This document shows positions 10,567 through 54,279 of a stretch of DNA of 64,000 bases, in pieces (within the stretch, counting starts at the first letter, position 1; every line of letters begins with the position of its first letter). The position numbers and the translations under genes were made by a program. The notes beneath the pieces are model-generated. The model saw nothing but the letters and a program-made list of their open reading frames with translations, did no database searches and was not told the DNA's origin. Source of the stretch: Acidimicrobiia bacterium (GTDB taxonomy: Bacteria > Actinomycetota > Acidimicrobiia > IMCC26256 > BP-133); contig JBIOUX010000104.1 of assembly GCA_044867425.1 (NCBI GenBank), positions 211-64,210 on the forward strand, in the 5' to 3' direction.

Positions 10567-11336
10567 CCACTCCGACGCCGGCGAACGATCCGGGGCGTCC
10601 TGTACGCCGCGAGGAACTCGTCGCCGTGGGCGACGGTCACGTCCTCACGGTGACCGACTTTCCCGCCCGTGAGCCAGCCGGCACCGTCGTCCTGTGTCAT
10701 GGCCTCACCGGAGATCGAGTTGGCCCCCAGCGGCTGCTCACCGTACTGGCGGAGGAGATCGCTTTGGGCGGCTTCCTCTGTCTGCGCTTCGATTTTCGCG
10801 GCTCGGGAGACTCCAGCGGGGACTTCTCGGGCTCGACCTTCACGTCGATGCGTGAGGATGTGGAGCTCGTCACCAGCTGGGGACGGGAGCGGTACGGGCG
10901 GCACCCCCTGGGGCTGGTCGGACTGTCGATCGGTGGGGTTCCGCTGGCGGTGGCCGCCCGCCGGTTCGACCACGTGGGCGCCGTCGTCCTGCTCTCGAGC
11001 GACGTGATCGAGGACGTCTACTTCCCCGATATCGGCCCCATGGTCGCCATCCGGGGCGGCGAGTTCCAGCTGCCGGCGAGCTTCTGGCGGGAACGGGAGC
11101 TTCTGCACCCGTTCAGCGACCTGCTGGCGACGGGTAGCCCGGTCAAGCTCTTCTACGGCGCCCAGGACGAGAAGCTGGCTCGAGAAGCACGCCGGTTCAG
11201 AGCGGCCGGATTCTCAGTCGAGCAGATCAGGGGCGTGGGGCACCTCTTCGAAAACATCGAGACCCGACACTATCTCGGCCGTCGTGTCGTCAGGTTCCTG
11301 CGCCGGCACCTGGTGCACCCGGCTCGGCGGCCATGA
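10563..11336 (+). CDS. Alpha/beta hydrolase
   Basis: VVLCHGLTGD, DFRGSGDS, and nucleophile elbow GLSIGG. GTGA overlap at 10563. Confidence 0.75.
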   Translation: MTTPTPANDPGRPVRREELVAVGDGHVLTVTDFPAREPAGTVVLCHGLTGDRVGPQRLLTVLAEEIALGGFLCLRFDFRGSGDSSGDFSGSTFTSMREDVELVTSWGRERYGRHPLGLVGLSIGGVPLAVAARRFDHVGAVVLLSSDVIEDVYFPDIGPMVAIRGGEFQLPASFWRERELLHPFSDLLATGSPVKLFYGAQDEKLAREARRFRAAGFSVEQIRGVGHLFENIETRHYLGRRVVRFLRRHLVHPARRP

Positions 11337-37562: not shown

Positions 37563-37649
37563 CGGGCCAAGACTCGTTCACCATCCTGAAGATCCAGCTA
37601 TGGCCCCCTGAAGATCCACCCAAGCTGCCGGCTCGGACCGTCCGCCGAT

Positions 37650-38429
37650 TTACGCGGTCCGCTTGCGGGCGAGGAAGGCGTAGCCGTACACGTCGAAGGC
37701 GCGGGCCTTGTCCTCGCCTTTGGCGCCTCCGAAGGTGTCGACGGGTGGTCCGATCTCCACGTCACCGAAGCCGGAGTCCTCGAGCATCTTCTGCCAGCCC
37801 GCACGGGGCAGCCCACCGGCGATTCAGCCGGTCCACAGGTCGATGTCGCGCAGCGCCTCGGGCGGGACGGGGCGGCCGTTGGCGATGTCGGCGAACTGCA
37901 GCACCCCGCCGGGACGCAGCACCCGGCGGATCTCGGCGAACACGGCCTGCTTGTCGGCGCAGAGGTTGATGACCCCGTTGGAGATCACCGCGTCGGCCCA
38001 CCCGTCCTCGACCGGGATCGCCTCGGCGAGGCCGTCGCGGAAGCTGACGTGCGCGAACCCGAGCTCCTCGGCGGTCCGGCGGGACTTGGTGAGCATCTCG
38101 GCGGTCATGTCGATGCCGACGACCTCGCCGGTGACGCCGACCTGGCCGGCGGCGATGAAGGAGTCGAAGCCGGCGCCGGAACCCACGTCGACCACCCGCT
38201 CGCCGGGCGCCAAGCGCCGCAGCGAGAAGGGATTGCCGACCCCGGCGAACGACTCGACGGCCTGGTCGGGGAAGGCGTCGACGACGGTCTGGTCGTAGCC
38301 GAGACGGCGGGCGAGGGGTCGGCCGGTGTGGAAGTGGTGCTCGGCGTGGGGAGCCAGCGCGACGTCGCGGTACTTGTCCCGCACCTGCTCGCGCAGCGTC
38401 AGGGGATCGACCAGCAGGTCCTCGGCCAT
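37650..38429 (-). CDS. ArsM-like SAM-dependent methyltransferase with an in-frame TGA at codon 202 (candidate selenocysteine), 259 aa if read through
   Basis: The track ends this frame at TGA 37826-37824 (...RDIDLWTG*). Reading on in the same frame gives IAGGLPRAGWQKMLEDSGFGDVEIGPPVDTFGGAKGEDKARAFDVYGYAFLARKRTA, ending at TAA 37652-37650, with third-position G+C of 50/57. The TGA falls where ArsM/AS3MT-type enzymes have the conserved Cys of (Y/W)xGC(I/V)xGA. SAM motif VVDVGSGAGFDS. Start ATG 38429. Confidence 0.7.
37793..37812 (-). promoter_or_regulatory. SECIS-like hairpin downstream of the in-frame UGA
   Basis: mRNA numbered from the U of UGA as +1. G18-C21 pairs with G27-C30, and C16-G32 and G15-C34 also pair. 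U17 is unpaired. The apical loop is C22-G23-U24-G25-C26. Confidence 0.5.
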
Positions 38430-38433
38430 CGGT

Positions 38434-39114
38434 TCAGCCTCCGTCCCCGGCTGCGACAGGCAGACCGGCTCGTTTCCATTCGGGGAACCCGTCCTCGAGG
38501 CGCCGGGCGCGGTAGCCGCGGCGGCGCAGCAACCGCACGGCGTCGTCGGCGTACACGCAGTAGGGGCCGCGGCAGTAGGCGACCACCTCGGCGTCCTTGG
38601 GCAGGGCCCGAAGGTGGCGGCGCAGCTCCCCGACAGGCACGGAGCGGGCTCCGGGGATGTGCCCGGCGAAGAACTCGGGTGTCGGCCGCACGTCGAGCAC
38701 CACCACGTCACCCGCCTCGAGGCGGGCGGCCAGCTCCCGGCGCCCGACGGCCTCCAACCGGGACCGGTCACCGAGATAGTCCTCGGCCAACCGCTCGATC
38801 CCTGCCACATGCTCGGCGGCCACGCCCCGCAACGCCGCCCACAGCTCGGCCACCCGATCGCTGGCCAGCATGTAGACGATCCGGGTTCCCTCCCGTCGGG
38901 TACGCAACACACCAGCGCGGGCCATGGCCCGCAAGTGGTGTGAGGTGTTGGCCACGCTCTGGTCGATCTCGCCGGCGATCTCGTCGACCGAGCGCTCCCC
39001 CTGGACGAGGAGGTCGACGATCTCGGCCCGCCGTCCGCTGGCCAGGGCCTTGGCCACCTCGGCGAAGGCGTCGAACAATGCGTCCTTGGCCGCCCGGTCA
39101 CCCATGGTGGCCAT
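38434..39114 (-). CDS. ArsR-family HTH regulator fused to a rhodanese domain
   Basis: HTH: ERSVDEIAGEIDQSVANTSHHLRAMARAGVL. Rhodanese: VVLDVRPTPEFFAGHIPGARSVP...AYCRGPYC. The start was trimmed to MATMGDR (ATG 39114). The stop lies 4 nt before the methyltransferase start. Confidence 0.8.
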   Translation of the reverse strand: MATMGDRAAKDALFDAFAEVAKALASGRRAEIVDLLVQGERSVDEIAGEIDQSVANTSHHLRAMARAGVLRTRREGTRIVYMLASDRVAELWAALRGVAAEHVAGIERLAEDYLGDRSRLEAVGRRELAARLEAGDVVVLDVRPTPEFFAGHIPGARSVPVGELRRHLRALPKDAEVVAYCRGPYCVYADDAVRLLRRRGYRARRLEDGFPEWKRAGLPVAAGDGG

Positions 39115-39127
39115 GGTCCGGCCCGAG

Positions 39128-39202
39128 CTTGACTTTGTCAAGTGTTCAAATGATCTCTTGACAAGAAGCGACCCAGAGATACTATTCAAGTCATTACTTG
39201 AA
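39128..39202. promoter_or_regulatory. Three related palindromes in the divergent intergenic region (putative ArsR-type operators)
   Basis: CTTGAC-TTT-GTCAAG (39128-39142), CTTG-A-CAAG (39157-39165) and TTCAAGT-CATT-ACTTGAA (39185-39202). All are built from CTTGA/TCAAG half-sites and lie in an AT-rich 104-bp gap. Confidence 0.5.
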
Positions 39203-39218
39203 GATCACGGGAGCAACG

Positions 39219-40574
39219 ATGGCCAGCCCGGCGGTGGTGGCGCTCGTCGACGAGGGTCTCGGCAACGCATCGTACCTGGTCGACCTGGGCGACGGGCGCG
39301 CCTTGGTGGTCGACCCGCCTCGCGACCCGACCCGTCACCTCGCTCTCGCCGCGAAGTGGGGGGTCACGATCAGCCACACCTTCGAGACGCACTTGCACGC
39401 CGACTTCGTGACCGGAAGTCGCGAGCTGGCCTCCTTCGGCGCCACCGTCCTCGCGCCCGCCTCGGCGGGGATCGAGTGGCCTCACCGGGGGCTCGGCGAC
39501 GGCGACGAGATCGACCTGGGCGGGCTGCGTCTACGGGCCCTCGCCACTCCCGGCCACACCCCCGAGCATCTCGCCTACCTGCTCTGCGACGGCGAACAAC
39601 CCGCCGCCCTGTTCTCAGGGGGGTCGCTGCTGGTCGGCGCGGTGGCCCGCACCGACCTCATCGCCCCCGATCAGACCGAGACCCTGGCCCGCGCCCTGTG
39701 GCGCTCCATCGTCGAACGGCTCCTCACGCTGCCCGACGACCTGGCCGTCTACCCCACTCACGGCGCCGGGTCGTTCTGCTCCGCACCGGCGGGCGGCGAA
39801 CGCACCACCACCATCGGACGGGAACGGGCCGCCAACCCGCTGTTGGCTGCGCCCGACGAGGGCACCTTCGTCACCGGCCTCCTCGCCGGCCTGGGGACCT
39901 ACCCGCCGTATTTCGCCGAGCTCCGGGAGGTGAACCGCCGCGGCCCCCGCGTCTACGGCACCTTCCCCACCCTCGCTCGCCTCGACGTCGCCACCACCCG
40001 GCGGTTCGCCGCCAACGGCGCCGTCCTTGTCGACGTCCGTCCCGTCGAGCGTTTCGCCGCCGGCCACATCCCTGGCTCACTGGCGATCCCGCTGCGACCG
40101 CAGTTCGCCTCGTGGCTGGGCTGGCTCGTGAGACGGGACCAACCGATCGTGTTCGTCGTTGACGACGACCAGGACCGGGTTGACCTCGTCCGCCAATGCC
40201 TCACCATCGGCTACGAGCACCTCGCCGGCGAGCTGGCGGACGGCGTCGCCGCCTGGACCGCCGAATGCCAACCCGCGGGCGTGATCCCTCTTGTCAGCCC
40301 GGCGGCGCTGGATCGCCGGCGGGTGCTCGACGTCCGCCAGACCGCCGAATACACCGCCGGCCACGTGCCCGGCGCCGTCCACCTCGAACTCGGCTCGCTC
40401 CGCGCCCGGCTCGCCGCCGTACCCGCCGGTCCGATCACCCTGATGTGCGGCCACGGGGAGCGGGCCATGACCGGCGCCAGCATCCTCGCCGCCGCCGGCC
40501 GCGACGACGTGTCCGTGATGGTCGGTGGTCCCGACGACTGGGCCCGCGTGACCGCAGCACCGCTCGCCTCATGA
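39219..40574 (+). CDS. MBL-fold persulfide-dioxygenase-like domain fused to two rhodanese domains (CstB/PDO-Rhod type)
   Basis: THLHADFVTGS (HxHxDH-type). C-terminal rhodanese repeats: VLVDVRPVERFAAGHIPGS and VLDVRQTAEYTAGHVPGAVH...MCGHGERA. ATG 39219 after GGGAG. Confidence 0.85.
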   Translation: MASPAVVALVDEGLGNASYLVDLGDGRALVVDPPRDPTRHLALAAKWGVTISHTFETHLHADFVTGSRELASFGATVLAPASAGIEWPHRGLGDGDEIDLGGLRLRALATPGHTPEHLAYLLCDGEQPAALFSGGSLLVGAVARTDLIAPDQTETLARALWRSIVERLLTLPDDLAVYPTHGAGSFCSAPAGGERTTTIGRERAANPLLAAPDEGTFVTGLLAGLGTYPPYFAELREVNRRGPRVYGTFPTLARLDVATTRRFAANGAVLVDVRPVERFAAGHIPGSLAIPLRPQFASWLGWLVRRDQPIVFVVDDDQDRVDLVRQCLTIGYEHLAGELADGVAAWTAECQPAGVIPLVSPAALDRRRVLDVRQTAEYTAGHVPGAVHLELGSLRARLAAVPAGPITLMCGHGERAMTGASILAAAGRDDVSVMVGGPDDWARVTAAPLAS

Positions 40575-41851
40575 CCACCACCAGCGAGCCGGTGACGGCG
40601 AAGACCGCACCCCGGTTGGGGCTCCGTCAGAACCTCGCCCAGTTCAGCCTCCTGGTGGGCATCAACGCCCTCGTCGGCGGCATGATCGGCCAGGAACGCA
40701 CCGTCCTGCCCCTGCTGGCCACCCGCACCTTCGGGCTGGCCGCCTTCACCGCCACGACGACGTTCATCGTCGCCTTCGGGGCCACCAAGGCGCTCACCAA
40801 CCTGGCCACCGGCGCCCTCACCGACCGCGTCGGCCGCAAACCCGTCCTCGTCGCCGGCTGGCTCATCGGCCTCCCCGTCCCCTTCCTCCTGATCTGGGCG
40901 CCGAGCTGGGGGTGGGTGATCGCCGCCAACGTCCTGCTGGGCGTCAACCAGGGCATGACCTGGTCCACCACCGTCATCATGAAGATCGACCTGGTCGGCC
41001 CCGCCCGCCGCGGCTTCGCCCTCGGCCTCAACGAAGCGTCCGGCTACGGCGCCGTGGCGCTCACCGCCCTGGCCACCGGCGCCATCGCCGCCCGCCACGG
41101 GCTGCGCCCCGAACCCTTCTACCTCGGCATCGCCTTCGCCGGGCTCGGCCTCGGCCTCTCCACCCTGTTCGTGCGCGAGACCCAAGGCCATGCCCGCCAC
41201 GAAGCCACCACCACCAGATCCCAAACCGACGCCGACGACCGGTTCGGGGTGGTGTTCGCCCGCGCCACCTGGCGAGACCCGACCCTCAGCGCCGTCAGCC
41301 AGGCCGGGCTCGTCAACAACGCCGTCGACGGCCTGGCCTGGGGCATCCTCCCGCTGCTGTTCGCCGCCGGTGGGCAGTCGGTGCAGGCCATCGGGGTGCT
41401 CGCCGCCCTCTATCCCGGGGTGTGGTGCGTCGGTCAGCTGTTCACCGGTGCGTGGTCGGATCGGGTGGGCCGCAAGCCGCTCATCACCGCCGGCATGATC
41501 CTCCAAGGCGTCGCCCTCGCCCTCATGGCCACCACCACCGGCTTCGGGCCGTGGGCGGCAGGCGCCGTGCTCATCGGCGTCGGTACCGCCCTCGTCTACC
41601 CGACCCTGATCGCCGCCGTCGGCGACCGGGCCCACCCCAGCTGGCGGGCCACCGCCGTCGGTGTCTACCGGCTGTGGCGCGACACCGGCTACGTCGCCGG
41701 CGCCCTCCTCGGCGGCATCGTCGCCGACGCCTTCGACCTGCGGGCCGCCGTCTGGGTCGTCGCCGCCCTCAGCATCGCCTCGGGACTCGTCGTCGCCACC
41801 CGCATGACCGAAACCCACACGACCAGCGCGTCAGCCATGCTTCCGGCATGA
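40571..41851 (+). CDS. MFS transporter
   Basis: Track ORF 40196..41851, trimmed to MTTTSEP (ATGA overlap at 40571). TDRVGRKPVL and SDRVGRKPLI are MFS loop motifs. 12-TM profile. Confidence 0.85.
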   Translation: MTTTSEPVTAKTAPRLGLRQNLAQFSLLVGINALVGGMIGQERTVLPLLATRTFGLAAFTATTTFIVAFGATKALTNLATGALTDRVGRKPVLVAGWLIGLPVPFLLIWAPSWGWVIAANVLLGVNQGMTWSTTVIMKIDLVGPARRGFALGLNEASGYGAVALTALATGAIAARHGLRPEPFYLGIAFAGLGLGLSTLFVRETQGHARHEATTTRSQTDADDRFGVVFARATWRDPTLSAVSQAGLVNNAVDGLAWGILPLLFAAGGQSVQAIGVLAALYPGVWCVGQLFTGAWSDRVGRKPLITAGMILQGVALALMATTTGFGPWAAGAVLIGVGTALVYPTLIAAVGDRAHPSWRATAVGVYRLWRDTGYVAGALLGGIVADAFDLRAAVWVVAALSIASGLVVATRMTETHTTSASAMLPA

Positions 41852-53887: not shown

Positions 53888-54279
53888 GCTCCCCTTCGGC
53901 AGCCAGTTCCGGAGCCGACTGAGCCCTCGAGCGCCTGCCGGGCCGTGGTCGGGCGTGCTGCCGGCGTCCGTCAGGCCGTCCGGCGGGATGTGGATCGGTC
54001 GGGTCACGTTGCGCACTTCTCCACTTCGGTAGCCCGGCTGGCCCGGAGGGCCCCGTGGCTTTGCGTCCCCGCCTCGCAACGGGTTTGCCCTTTTCTTGTC
54101 ATCGGGGTATCGGTTCGCAACAAAAATTCCTTGACTGGTAATTGCTGGGCTGGTCGCGATGCTCAGAAGTCGCTCACCTGCGACATCGCCCGTCCACTGA
54201 TCGCCAGCTCGTGTGGCCTGTCACATGACCGCCGCCGACATGTCGCACCGGCTAGAACCGCGATGAGCCGGAGGAAGGG

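Follow-up and report, generated by a model that had tools for sequence, protein, structure and literature searches.

An in-frame UGA in an ArsM-like methyltransferase gene of Acidimicrobiia as a probable selenocysteine codon

Introduction

In a stretch of 64,000 nucleotides from an Acidimicrobiia bacterium (contig JBIOUX010000104.1 of assembly GCA_044867425.1; hereafter the window), a gene for an ArsM-like methyltransferase is interrupted by one in-frame TGA codon, behind which the reading frame continues to a TAA. The question raised by this locus is whether the TGA terminates a protein of 201 residues, as gene callers have it, or whether it is read as selenocysteine (Sec) within a protein of 259 residues. 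A previous interpretation made from the letters of the window alone (the sequence-only reading) had proposed a candidate selenoprotein with a hairpin resembling a selenocysteine insertion sequence (SECIS) behind the TGA. Here, we compare the locus with its relatives in genomes and metagenomes. The conserved stop column, the selection acting on the downstream codons, the Cys-containing homologues and the conservation of the RNA support this proposal: the gene very probably encodes a 259-residue selenoprotein of the ArsM/AS3MT branch of methyltransferases, in which UGA-202 would be read as Sec by means of the SECIS hairpin.

Results

The stop codon and the tail behind it are conserved among relatives

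The window was compared with 160 related loci, 80 of them from species-representative genomes of the Genome Taxonomy Database (GTDB) and 80 from metagenomes. A stop codon occupies the column of the TGA in all 160 loci, namely TGA in 158 and TAG in the remaining two, with 79 TGA and one TAG in each of the two sets of 80; neither TGC nor TGT was found at this column in any of these closest loci. The TGA is therefore not private to the strain, a possibility that the sequence-only reading had put up for checking together with the possibility that orthologues end at this position. None of them does: the downstream frame is conserved in all 160 loci, and the tblastn matches span residues 1-256. Behind the TGA (codons +12 to +52), the median ratio of nonsynonymous to synonymous substitution rates (dN/dS) was 0.20, compared to 0.15 over the 190 codons in front of it, and the comparison with L001, the closest species-level relative, gave 0.11 for the tail and 0.12 for the upstream part. 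From the conserved frame and the purifying selection it follows that the tail is translated and selected as protein, and a tail under such selection excludes a pseudogene, a sequencing error and a genuine C-terminus at the TGA.

The genome loci carrying the gene belong mostly to metagenome-assembled genomes (MAGs) of Acidimicrobiia/Ilumatobacteraceae, but also to Sporichthyaceae, Egibacteraceae and Geodermatophilaceae and to a few contigs binned to Proteobacteria. Several MAGs hold two copies of the TGA-containing gene (L003/L004, L011/L053, L045/L068 and L064/L071); one such pair lies on a single contig of 1.88 Mb, with the copies about 70 kb apart.

On the protein level, a database search returned dozens of homologues at 83 to 98% identity, every one of which had been called with 201 residues, exactly the truncation that had been foreseen for standard gene callers; the window's own 201-residue product is present in the databases as P0121. 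Full-length homologues of 256 to 260 residues were found at 65 to 70% identity, and these carry Cys in the TGA column. In the protein alignment, Cys was present at the column in P0029, P0033, P0044, P0050, P0072, P0079, P0080 and P0111, and the corresponding TGC codon was seen in the DNA of L165-L169. The protein record of P0008, the only source for this protein, gives Leu at the Sec column. A Trp at the Sec column of P0015 (L084 121-900, JGI Ga0533585_0510706) was rejected as an artefact: the DNA reads TGA, and the gene caller evidently applied a code with TGA as Trp to this contig, hiding the selenoprotein behind a full-length call.

Within the window, translation of the minus strand gives 201 codons up to ...RDIDLWTG, the TGA, 57 sense codons (IAGGLPRAGW...FLARKRTA) and the TAA, in agreement with the sequence-only reading. 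Third-position G+C amounts to 194 of 201 codons before the TGA and, on recount, to the same 50 of 57 codons behind it that had been taken as a sign of coding constraint, which the dN/dS of the tail bears out. Of 30 crude open reading frames (ORFs) with high third-position G+C in the window, 20 end in TGA, more than in any other ordinary stop codon, so that the genetic code is standard and TGA is not reassigned. The methyltransferase gene was the only TGA-interrupted frame with high third-position G+C found in the 64-kb window, apart from off-frame noise.

The RNA behind the UGA is constrained as a SECIS-like hairpin

The codons immediately downstream of the UGA are constrained beyond their coding function. 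Synonymous entropy at codons +4 to +10 was 0 to 0.33, compared to about 1.0 to 1.4 gene-wide (79 genes), and single codons dominate at these positions, with shares of 96% for GGG, 99% for CTG, 95% for CCC, 100% for CGT, 96% for GCG, 96% for GGC and 100% for TGG. This stretch, nt +13 to +33, can be folded into a hairpin (Table 1; positions are counted from the U of the UGA), in which a core stem of the pairs G18-C30, C19-G29, C20-G28 and C21-G27 closes the loop CGUGC; in the RNAfold structure, the stem is extended by U17.G32, C16-G33 and G15-C34, with U31 bulged.

Pairing in the SECIS class of the window (class 1) was counted on 56 distinct sequences. The four core pairs were maintained in 96 to 100% of them, the changes of C21 to U and of C30 to U resulting in wobble pairs, and in the loop C22, G23, U24 and G25 were invariant, with only C26 free to vary. 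In a variant, L070, the 3' arm is shifted by one base and the extended stem is preserved. Three sister classes (classes 2-4) from the metagenome set have the sequences GGCCUUC[CGUGC]GAAGGCU, GGCCUGC[CGUGC]GCAGGCU and GGUCUGC[CGUGU]GCAGCCU. Their seven-pair stem, from pair 13-31 to pair 19-25, was 96.3% paired in 58 distinct sequences, a value that none of 500 shuffles reached, and controls in which the register was slid gave 19 to 48%. Pair 18-26 of this stem is G-C in 36 sequences, U-A in 22 and broken in none, and the folds of two of the sister classes had z-scores of -3.0 and -3.3 relative to shuffles. Class 1 and the sister classes share the same loop, CGUGY, closed by a C-G pair, with an offset of 2 nt that places the sister loop nearer to the UGA.

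A common register (13-31 to 19-25) for all classes was considered and rejected, as it is contradicted by class 1, in which a change of C26 to A in five sequences would break G18-C26. Since C26 varies in class 1, this class fits instead the register given by the sequence-only reading. That reading had described G23-U24 in a 5-nt apical loop above an unpaired U17 and likened the geometry to the SECIS of E. coli fdhF. The loop stands; an unpaired U17 appears in just one of two drawings that are equivalent; and the likeness to fdhF is right for class 1, as judged by folding both. The fdhF hairpin, too, is part of the coding sequence and follows closely on the UGA; its apical loop contains G23 and U24, at an equal distance from the UGA, and sits above a U17/U18 bulge. 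The two elements differ in the sequence of the stem, in the bulge, which in the window can be shown either as U31 bulging from the 3' arm or as a U17xU31 mismatch, and in the loop, which has the 5 nt CGUGC in the window as opposed to GGUC in the RNAfold drawing of fdhF; the loop of the sister classes departs from fdhF by its offset as well.

In the Cys-form (TGC) homologues, the hairpin is absent. They carry unrelated sequence at the SECIS stretch (e.g. GGG CTG CCC ACC GAT GAC...), and their proteins vary over the same residues (LPTDDW, QPVDGW, LSLADW). A scan of positions 37700-37900 by E-value against Rfam returned only a chance match (E = 7) and left the hairpin unmatched in that database.

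The tail completes a class I methyltransferase fold

The 259-residue product matches the class I methyltransferase domains Methyltransf_31/11/25 of Pfam, and Ubie_methyltran with 58 bits. Its best NCBIfam matches are NF041537 (ArsM/AhpD selenoprotein; 216 bits, cut-off 510), NF041536 (ArsM/DUF2284; 190 bits, cut-off 575) and NF047649 (methyltransferase/UXPK-star; 196 bits, cut-off 460). These models match residues 10-227 with E-values from 7e-64 to 6e-56, and only their positions ~11-227 are covered. The AlphaFold model (predicted local distance difference test score 87, predicted template modelling score 0.89) retrieved the structures 4FR0, 6CX6, 5EVJ and 8XT7 as top PDB matches of Foldseek (E 3e-18), and the ArsM proteins (CmArsM, CrArsM and human AS3MT) are also the closest solved relatives by sequence (E 2e-22), with about 30% identity over ~237 columns; the window protein is shorter than these eukaryotic enzymes and lacks their C-terminal domain. 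In the phmmer alignment with 4FR0/4FS8/5EG5, Sec202 falls on the As-binding Cys224 of CmArsM (ilygeC-lggal versus dlwtgU-iaggl), so that the assignment of the stop to the metalloid-binding Cys of ArsM, made earlier from the motif, was borne out. According to DSSP on the AlphaFold model, the tail comprises a helix (209-218), a strand (221-226), a further helix (239-244) and a strand (248-256). Judging by class I topology, the two strands are the final ones of the sheet, and the 201-residue product would therefore be incomplete.

Sec machinery is found beside the gene in relatives, and the codon varies in Geodermatophilaceae

In L044 and L075, the methyltransferase gene is followed directly, 150 to 500 nt away, by a tRNA-Sec(UCA) gene detected with ARAGORN, and in L075 the tRNA-Sec is followed by SelD (TIGR00476, 395 bits, cut-off 125). 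A lone match to SelB in L045 turned out to be CysN. Many of the carrier genomes are close to Ilumatobacter species, and the supplement of Peng et al. 2016 (PMC5029168) lists I. coccineus and I. nonamiensis as positive for SelA/B/D, with 15 and 10 selenoproteins, respectively; Modestobacter marinus and Blastococcus saxobsidens are listed as Sec-positive in the same supplement.

The two TAG codons were found in L080 (Modestobacter sp. DSM 44400, position 10595) and in a similar metagenome contig, L155, both of which keep the class-1 SECIS sequence after the TAG. Modestobacter is a member of the Geodermatophilaceae, a family for which PMC5330540, reporting Mukai et al. 2016, describes members with tRNASec-CUA and TAG as Sec codon. 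A TAG that appears just in the family reported to use UAG for Sec would have no easy explanation if the position were anything other than Sec. The TAG of L080 and L155 would fit UAG-encoded Sec, the gene using whichever codon its lineage reads as Sec; in the window, this codon is UGA. PMC5330540 names FDH, UGSC and AhpC as UAG selenoproteins and does not include the present methyltransferase. In L083 10001-10783 (Blastococcus deserti, JBJJTM010000009.1), the Sec column holds TGG (Trp) in an otherwise intact gene with an intact class-1 SECIS. This TGG is one transition away from the TAG of Modestobacter L080; it may represent a recent loss of Sec in favour of Trp or, speculatively, a sense-codon Sec site.

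The gene lies among sulfur-trafficking genes

The coordinates of the gene, its elements and its neighbours are collected in Table 1.

Table 1 Features of the methyltransferase locus in the 64-kb window.
Feature	Position	Strand	Description and basis
ArsM-like, probable selenoprotein gene	37650..38429	-	ATG 38429, Sec codon 202, TAA 37652..37650; 259-residue class I S-adenosylmethionine (SAM) methyltransferase; translation
In-frame UGA, probable Sec residue 202	37824..37826	-	Stop column kept in loci, Cys in full-length homologues, PDB alignment
C-terminal 57 codons lost by gene callers	37653..37823	-	dN/dS, DSSP on AlphaFold model, homology to Cys-form C-termini
Ribosome-binding site GGAGG	38438..38442	-	8 nt before ATG; read from sequence
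SECIS-like element GGGCUGCCCCGUGCGGGCUGGC	37793..37814	-	nt +13..+34 from U of UGA; synonymous entropy, pair counts, minimum free energy structure
Apical loop C22 G23 U24 G25 C26	37801..37805	-	Pair counts in 56 class-1 sequences, fdhF comparison
ArsR/SmtB helix-turn-helix (HTH)-rhodanese fusion	38434..39117	-	Pfam HTH_5/HTH_20 and Rhodanese; NCBIfam HTH_metalloreg; loop CRGPYC
Persulfide dioxygenase (PDO)-like metallo-beta-lactamase with two rhodanese domains (CstB/BpPRF-like)	39198..40574	+	Pfam Lactamase_B and 2x Rhodanese
Major facilitator superfamily (MFS) transporter	40571..41851	+	ORF list; ATG overlaps PDO stop (ATGA)
14-2-14 inverted repeat TTGTCAAGTGTTCA / TGATCTCTTGACAA	39135..39164		Divergent promoter region; repeat search; candidate operator
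Promoter-like site TTGACA-16-TACTAT	39158..39185		Promoter scan; overlaps inverted repeat

The TGA stop of the upstream gene (38436..38434) falls between the GGAGG and the ATG of the methyltransferase gene, 4 nt from the latter. This upstream gene encodes the ArsR-rhodanese protein, the HTH domain of which is devoid of Cys and which is the probable regulator co-transcribed with the methyltransferase. The operon with the ArsR-rhodanese regulator and the PDO-rhodanese fusion on the opposite strand had been recognised from the sequence, and the Pfam and PDB matches agree with both assignments. The true start of the PDO-rhodanese gene is probably ATG 39220; its product matched 3TP9 with 272 bits, as well as S. 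aureus CstB (3R2U), BpPRF (5VE3) and ETHE1 (4CHL). In B. deserti, a homologous MFS gene (Pfam MFS_1) also follows the PDO gene, and the four genes stand in one co-directional row. A second palindrome, 7-4-7, TTCAAGTcattACTTGAA, was noticed by eye in 39135-39202; the inverted repeats in the divergent promoter are candidate operators. Just past the TAA of the methyltransferase gene, the motif GGATCTTCAGG occurs twice within ~30 nt (37600-37650, minus strand), and no intrinsic terminator was detected there.

Neighbours were counted across 154 loci. The recurrent ones were the ArsR-rhodanese protein (41), the MFS transporter (28), a DsrE-like protein (28), the PDO-rhodanese protein (24) and a glyoxalase-like protein (9). 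In 66 loci, the methyltransferase gene has an ArsR-rhodanese homologue no more than 4 kb away; 41 of these loci fall into one neighbour cluster, and the Cys-form genes have an ArsR-rhodanese partner, too. The DsrE/DsrF-like protein of about 122 residues (PF02635, with the motif FFACPVC) is mostly encoded just downstream on the same strand (e.g. L041 6339-6707); its gene is absent from the window itself. No ars gene cluster was present among the 14 largest neighbour clusters, most of which were annotated and the rest read from sequence.

Farther away in the window, a c-di-GMP-I-GGC riboswitch aptamer (RF03167) was identified at 54024-54098 on the minus strand (67.8 bits, gathering threshold 59, E 6.6e-14), the only hit of a scan of the whole window at the Rfam gathering thresholds.

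Discussion

Points against a selenoprotein

Several observations speak against reading UGA-202 as Sec. The folding energy of the window hairpin is unremarkable, with z-scores of +0.15 to +0.30 relative to dinucleotide shuffles at 70% G+C; since shuffled sequence folds just as stably, we made no use of the energy of the hairpin, and it is conservation that carries the evidence. RNAalifold did not recover the hairpin on alignment A3 and instead returned a different, weak consensus (-5.2 kcal/mol) with no compensatory pairs. The check for covariation that the sequence-only reading had recommended came out in favour of the hairpin, with frozen synonymous sites and covariation in the sister classes; class 1, with its nearly invariant sequences, contains no compensatory changes. 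The exchange of G-C for U-A in the sister classes may, moreover, go back to a single evolutionary event. Within the 64-kb window, we found neither a tRNA gene nor SelA, SelB or SelD (tblastn with the E. coli proteins). Finally, selenium incorporation in this clade is inferred from the sequence comparisons.

Alternative explanations

Three alternatives have to be weighed against these points and the evidence given above. In the first, which we regard as improbable, the TGA is a true terminator and the 201-residue product is functional, with the tail translated separately from ATG 37787 or by SECIS-independent near-cognate read-through with insertion of Trp, Cys or Arg. Every public annotation calls the 201-residue protein, a 45-residue ORF does start at ATG 37787, and the intact gene of B. 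deserti with Trp at the column would suit read-through. However, conservation begins right after the TGA, with IAGGLP, 12 codons ahead of that ATG, and the 201-residue product would go without the last two beta-strands of its sheet. The alternative residue in the relatives is Cys rather than Trp; tRNA-Sec is adjacent in two loci and selD in one; TAG takes the place of TGA precisely in the family for which UAG has been reported as a Sec codon (PMC5330540); and a terminator would not account for the RNA-level constraint at the position of the SECIS.

According to the second alternative, to which we give slightly less credence still, the lineage inherited a selenoprotein gene and then lost the Sec machinery, so that the TGA now terminates and the gene is decaying. 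The lack of Sec machinery in the window would be in line with such a relic, and the loss of Sec is generally known to be common in bacterial lineages, gains and losses being discussed in PMC5029168. Decay is contradicted by the gene itself: the SECIS of the window is identical to the class consensus, the tail is intact, dN/dS relative to L001 is about equal in the tail and upstream, and an identical 201-residue N-terminal product is found on three independent contigs. The third alternative, a nonsense pseudogene or an error of sequencing or assembly that hit a Cys codon, from which TGA is indeed only one substitution away (TGC/TGT), is already refuted by the TGA of 158 independent genome and metagenome loci next to not a single TGC or TGT, and its probability is negligible.

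Relation to known systems

The selenoprotein interpretation has precedents. An 'Arsenite methyltransferase' with the motif UxxG (NF008823, WP_011987699.1; Fomenko et al. 2007 Science) is entered in selenoprotein tables (PMC13188914, PMC9312934), and Peng et al. 2016 (PMC5029168) give 39 organisms for a selenoprotein family of methyltransferases of the UbiE/COQ5 type. Both this family and the window protein (U-I-A-G) have the UxxG motif, its U standing where the catalytic or substrate-binding Cys would be. With ArsM/UbiE-COQ5 already tabulated as a selenoprotein family, our finding is a correct rediscovery, and the window gene would be a new member of the known family, perhaps in a distinct sub-clade. 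Several traits set the clade apart from the known ArsM selenoproteins, with which it was compared by way of the motif and the model: it scores below the NF008823 cut-off, it is devoid of equivalents of Cys72 and Cys174 and has Cys157 and the motif HFHTG instead, and it resides in a sulfur-trafficking rather than an ars neighbourhood. The fusion families NF041537, NF041536 and NF047649, attributed to Haft & Tolstoy 2025, have a UxxG Sec site like that of the window protein; the latter has a single domain and a single Sec, with no second domain and no second Sec, and stays far below their cut-offs. Less ordinary are how widely the gene is mis-annotated, how far the protein departs from the Cys set of ArsM, the sulfur context and the TAG variants.

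The neighbouring genes have their own counterparts in sulfide and persulfide clusters. What the locus shares with S. aureus cst (CstB), BigR-Blh and E. coli YgaV-YgaP as a group is the combination of an ArsR-family regulator, a rhodanese and a PDO-rhodanese protein; at the window locus, in contrast, a single fusion protein serves as both regulator and rhodanese. UbiE/UbiG-type SAM-dependent S-methyltransferases that detoxify H2S and methanethiol (MeSH), namely MddH, MddM1 and MddM2, exist in Actinomycetota (PMC12904073). The window enzyme differs from them in being of the ArsM type with a Cys/Sec pair, and the link to them is one of analogy and context alone.

Proposed mechanism and substrate

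In the mechanism that we propose, the mRNA hairpin 13 to 34 nt past the UGA, with the loop CGUGC and G23-U24 in it, would recruit SelB.GTP.Sec-tRNASec. Insertion of Sec at UGA-202 would then replace termination, and the last 57 codons would complete the methyltransferase fold. Sec202 and Cys157 may form a two-ligand site facing SAM, in which they would hold a soft metalloid or chalcogen substrate beside the methyl group. Expression of the methyltransferase gene would be induced through the rhodanese-coupled ArsR repressor.

With regard to the substrate, two findings weigh against arsenic. The score for the arsenite methyltransferase family NF008823 is 210.8 bits, below the cut-off of 263, and three of the four canonical Cys residues of ArsM are absent. 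Cys72 of CmArsM (GCG) corresponds to Val64 (AGVGNP), the N-terminal Cys pair being absent, and Cys174 (SNC) corresponds to Gly152 (SNG), which is invariant in the family. Cys157, which is invariant and the only Cys that the protein has, lies five residues past the position of Cys174 and aligns with Ser179. Of the two labels given by the sequence-only reading, 'selenoprotein' is better supported than 'ArsM'. Given the missing ArsM Cys residues and the sulfur-trafficking neighbours, the substrate may be sulfur or selenium instead of arsenic. Judging by context, sulfane sulfur or selenium species come first, with somewhat less than an even chance; As(III) or methyl-As(III), judging by homology, come second, and other substrates share the rest; arsenite is doubtful as a substrate. 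In a more specific form, which we put forward tentatively, the clade would fall outside the arsenite methyltransferases altogether and might instead be a Sec-dependent methyltransferase acting on persulfide, H2S/MeSH or selenide within a persulfide-stress regulon of ArsR-rhodanese, PDO-rhodanese, DsrE-like protein and MFS exporter, with the Cys157-Sec202 dyad capturing the chalcogen before methyl transfer.

Significance

The finding bears on annotation. All public copies that we examined are either truncated to 201 residues or mistranslated, including NCBI-annotated MAG proteins, and the mis-annotation extends over at least 160 loci, found in Acidimicrobiia, in other Actinomycetota and on some contigs that were binned to Proteobacteria; NCBIfam offers no model that would rescue full-length calls for the clade. 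The replacement of TGA by TAG exactly in Geodermatophilaceae provides a natural control for Sec decoding, and with it a methyltransferase would join the short list of UAG-encoded selenoproteins. The retention of the Sec site alone out of the metalloid-binding set of ArsM, together with the sulfur-trafficking genes, calls the automatic label 'arsenite methyltransferase' into question and suggests that the use of selenium may be linked, in a way that can be tested, to how reactive sulfur or selenium is handled. If the proposed action on sulfur or selenium is true, Sec would serve catalysis in a new way in this clade, and Acidimicrobiia along with other Actinomycetota would have a new route for volatilising sulfur or selenium.

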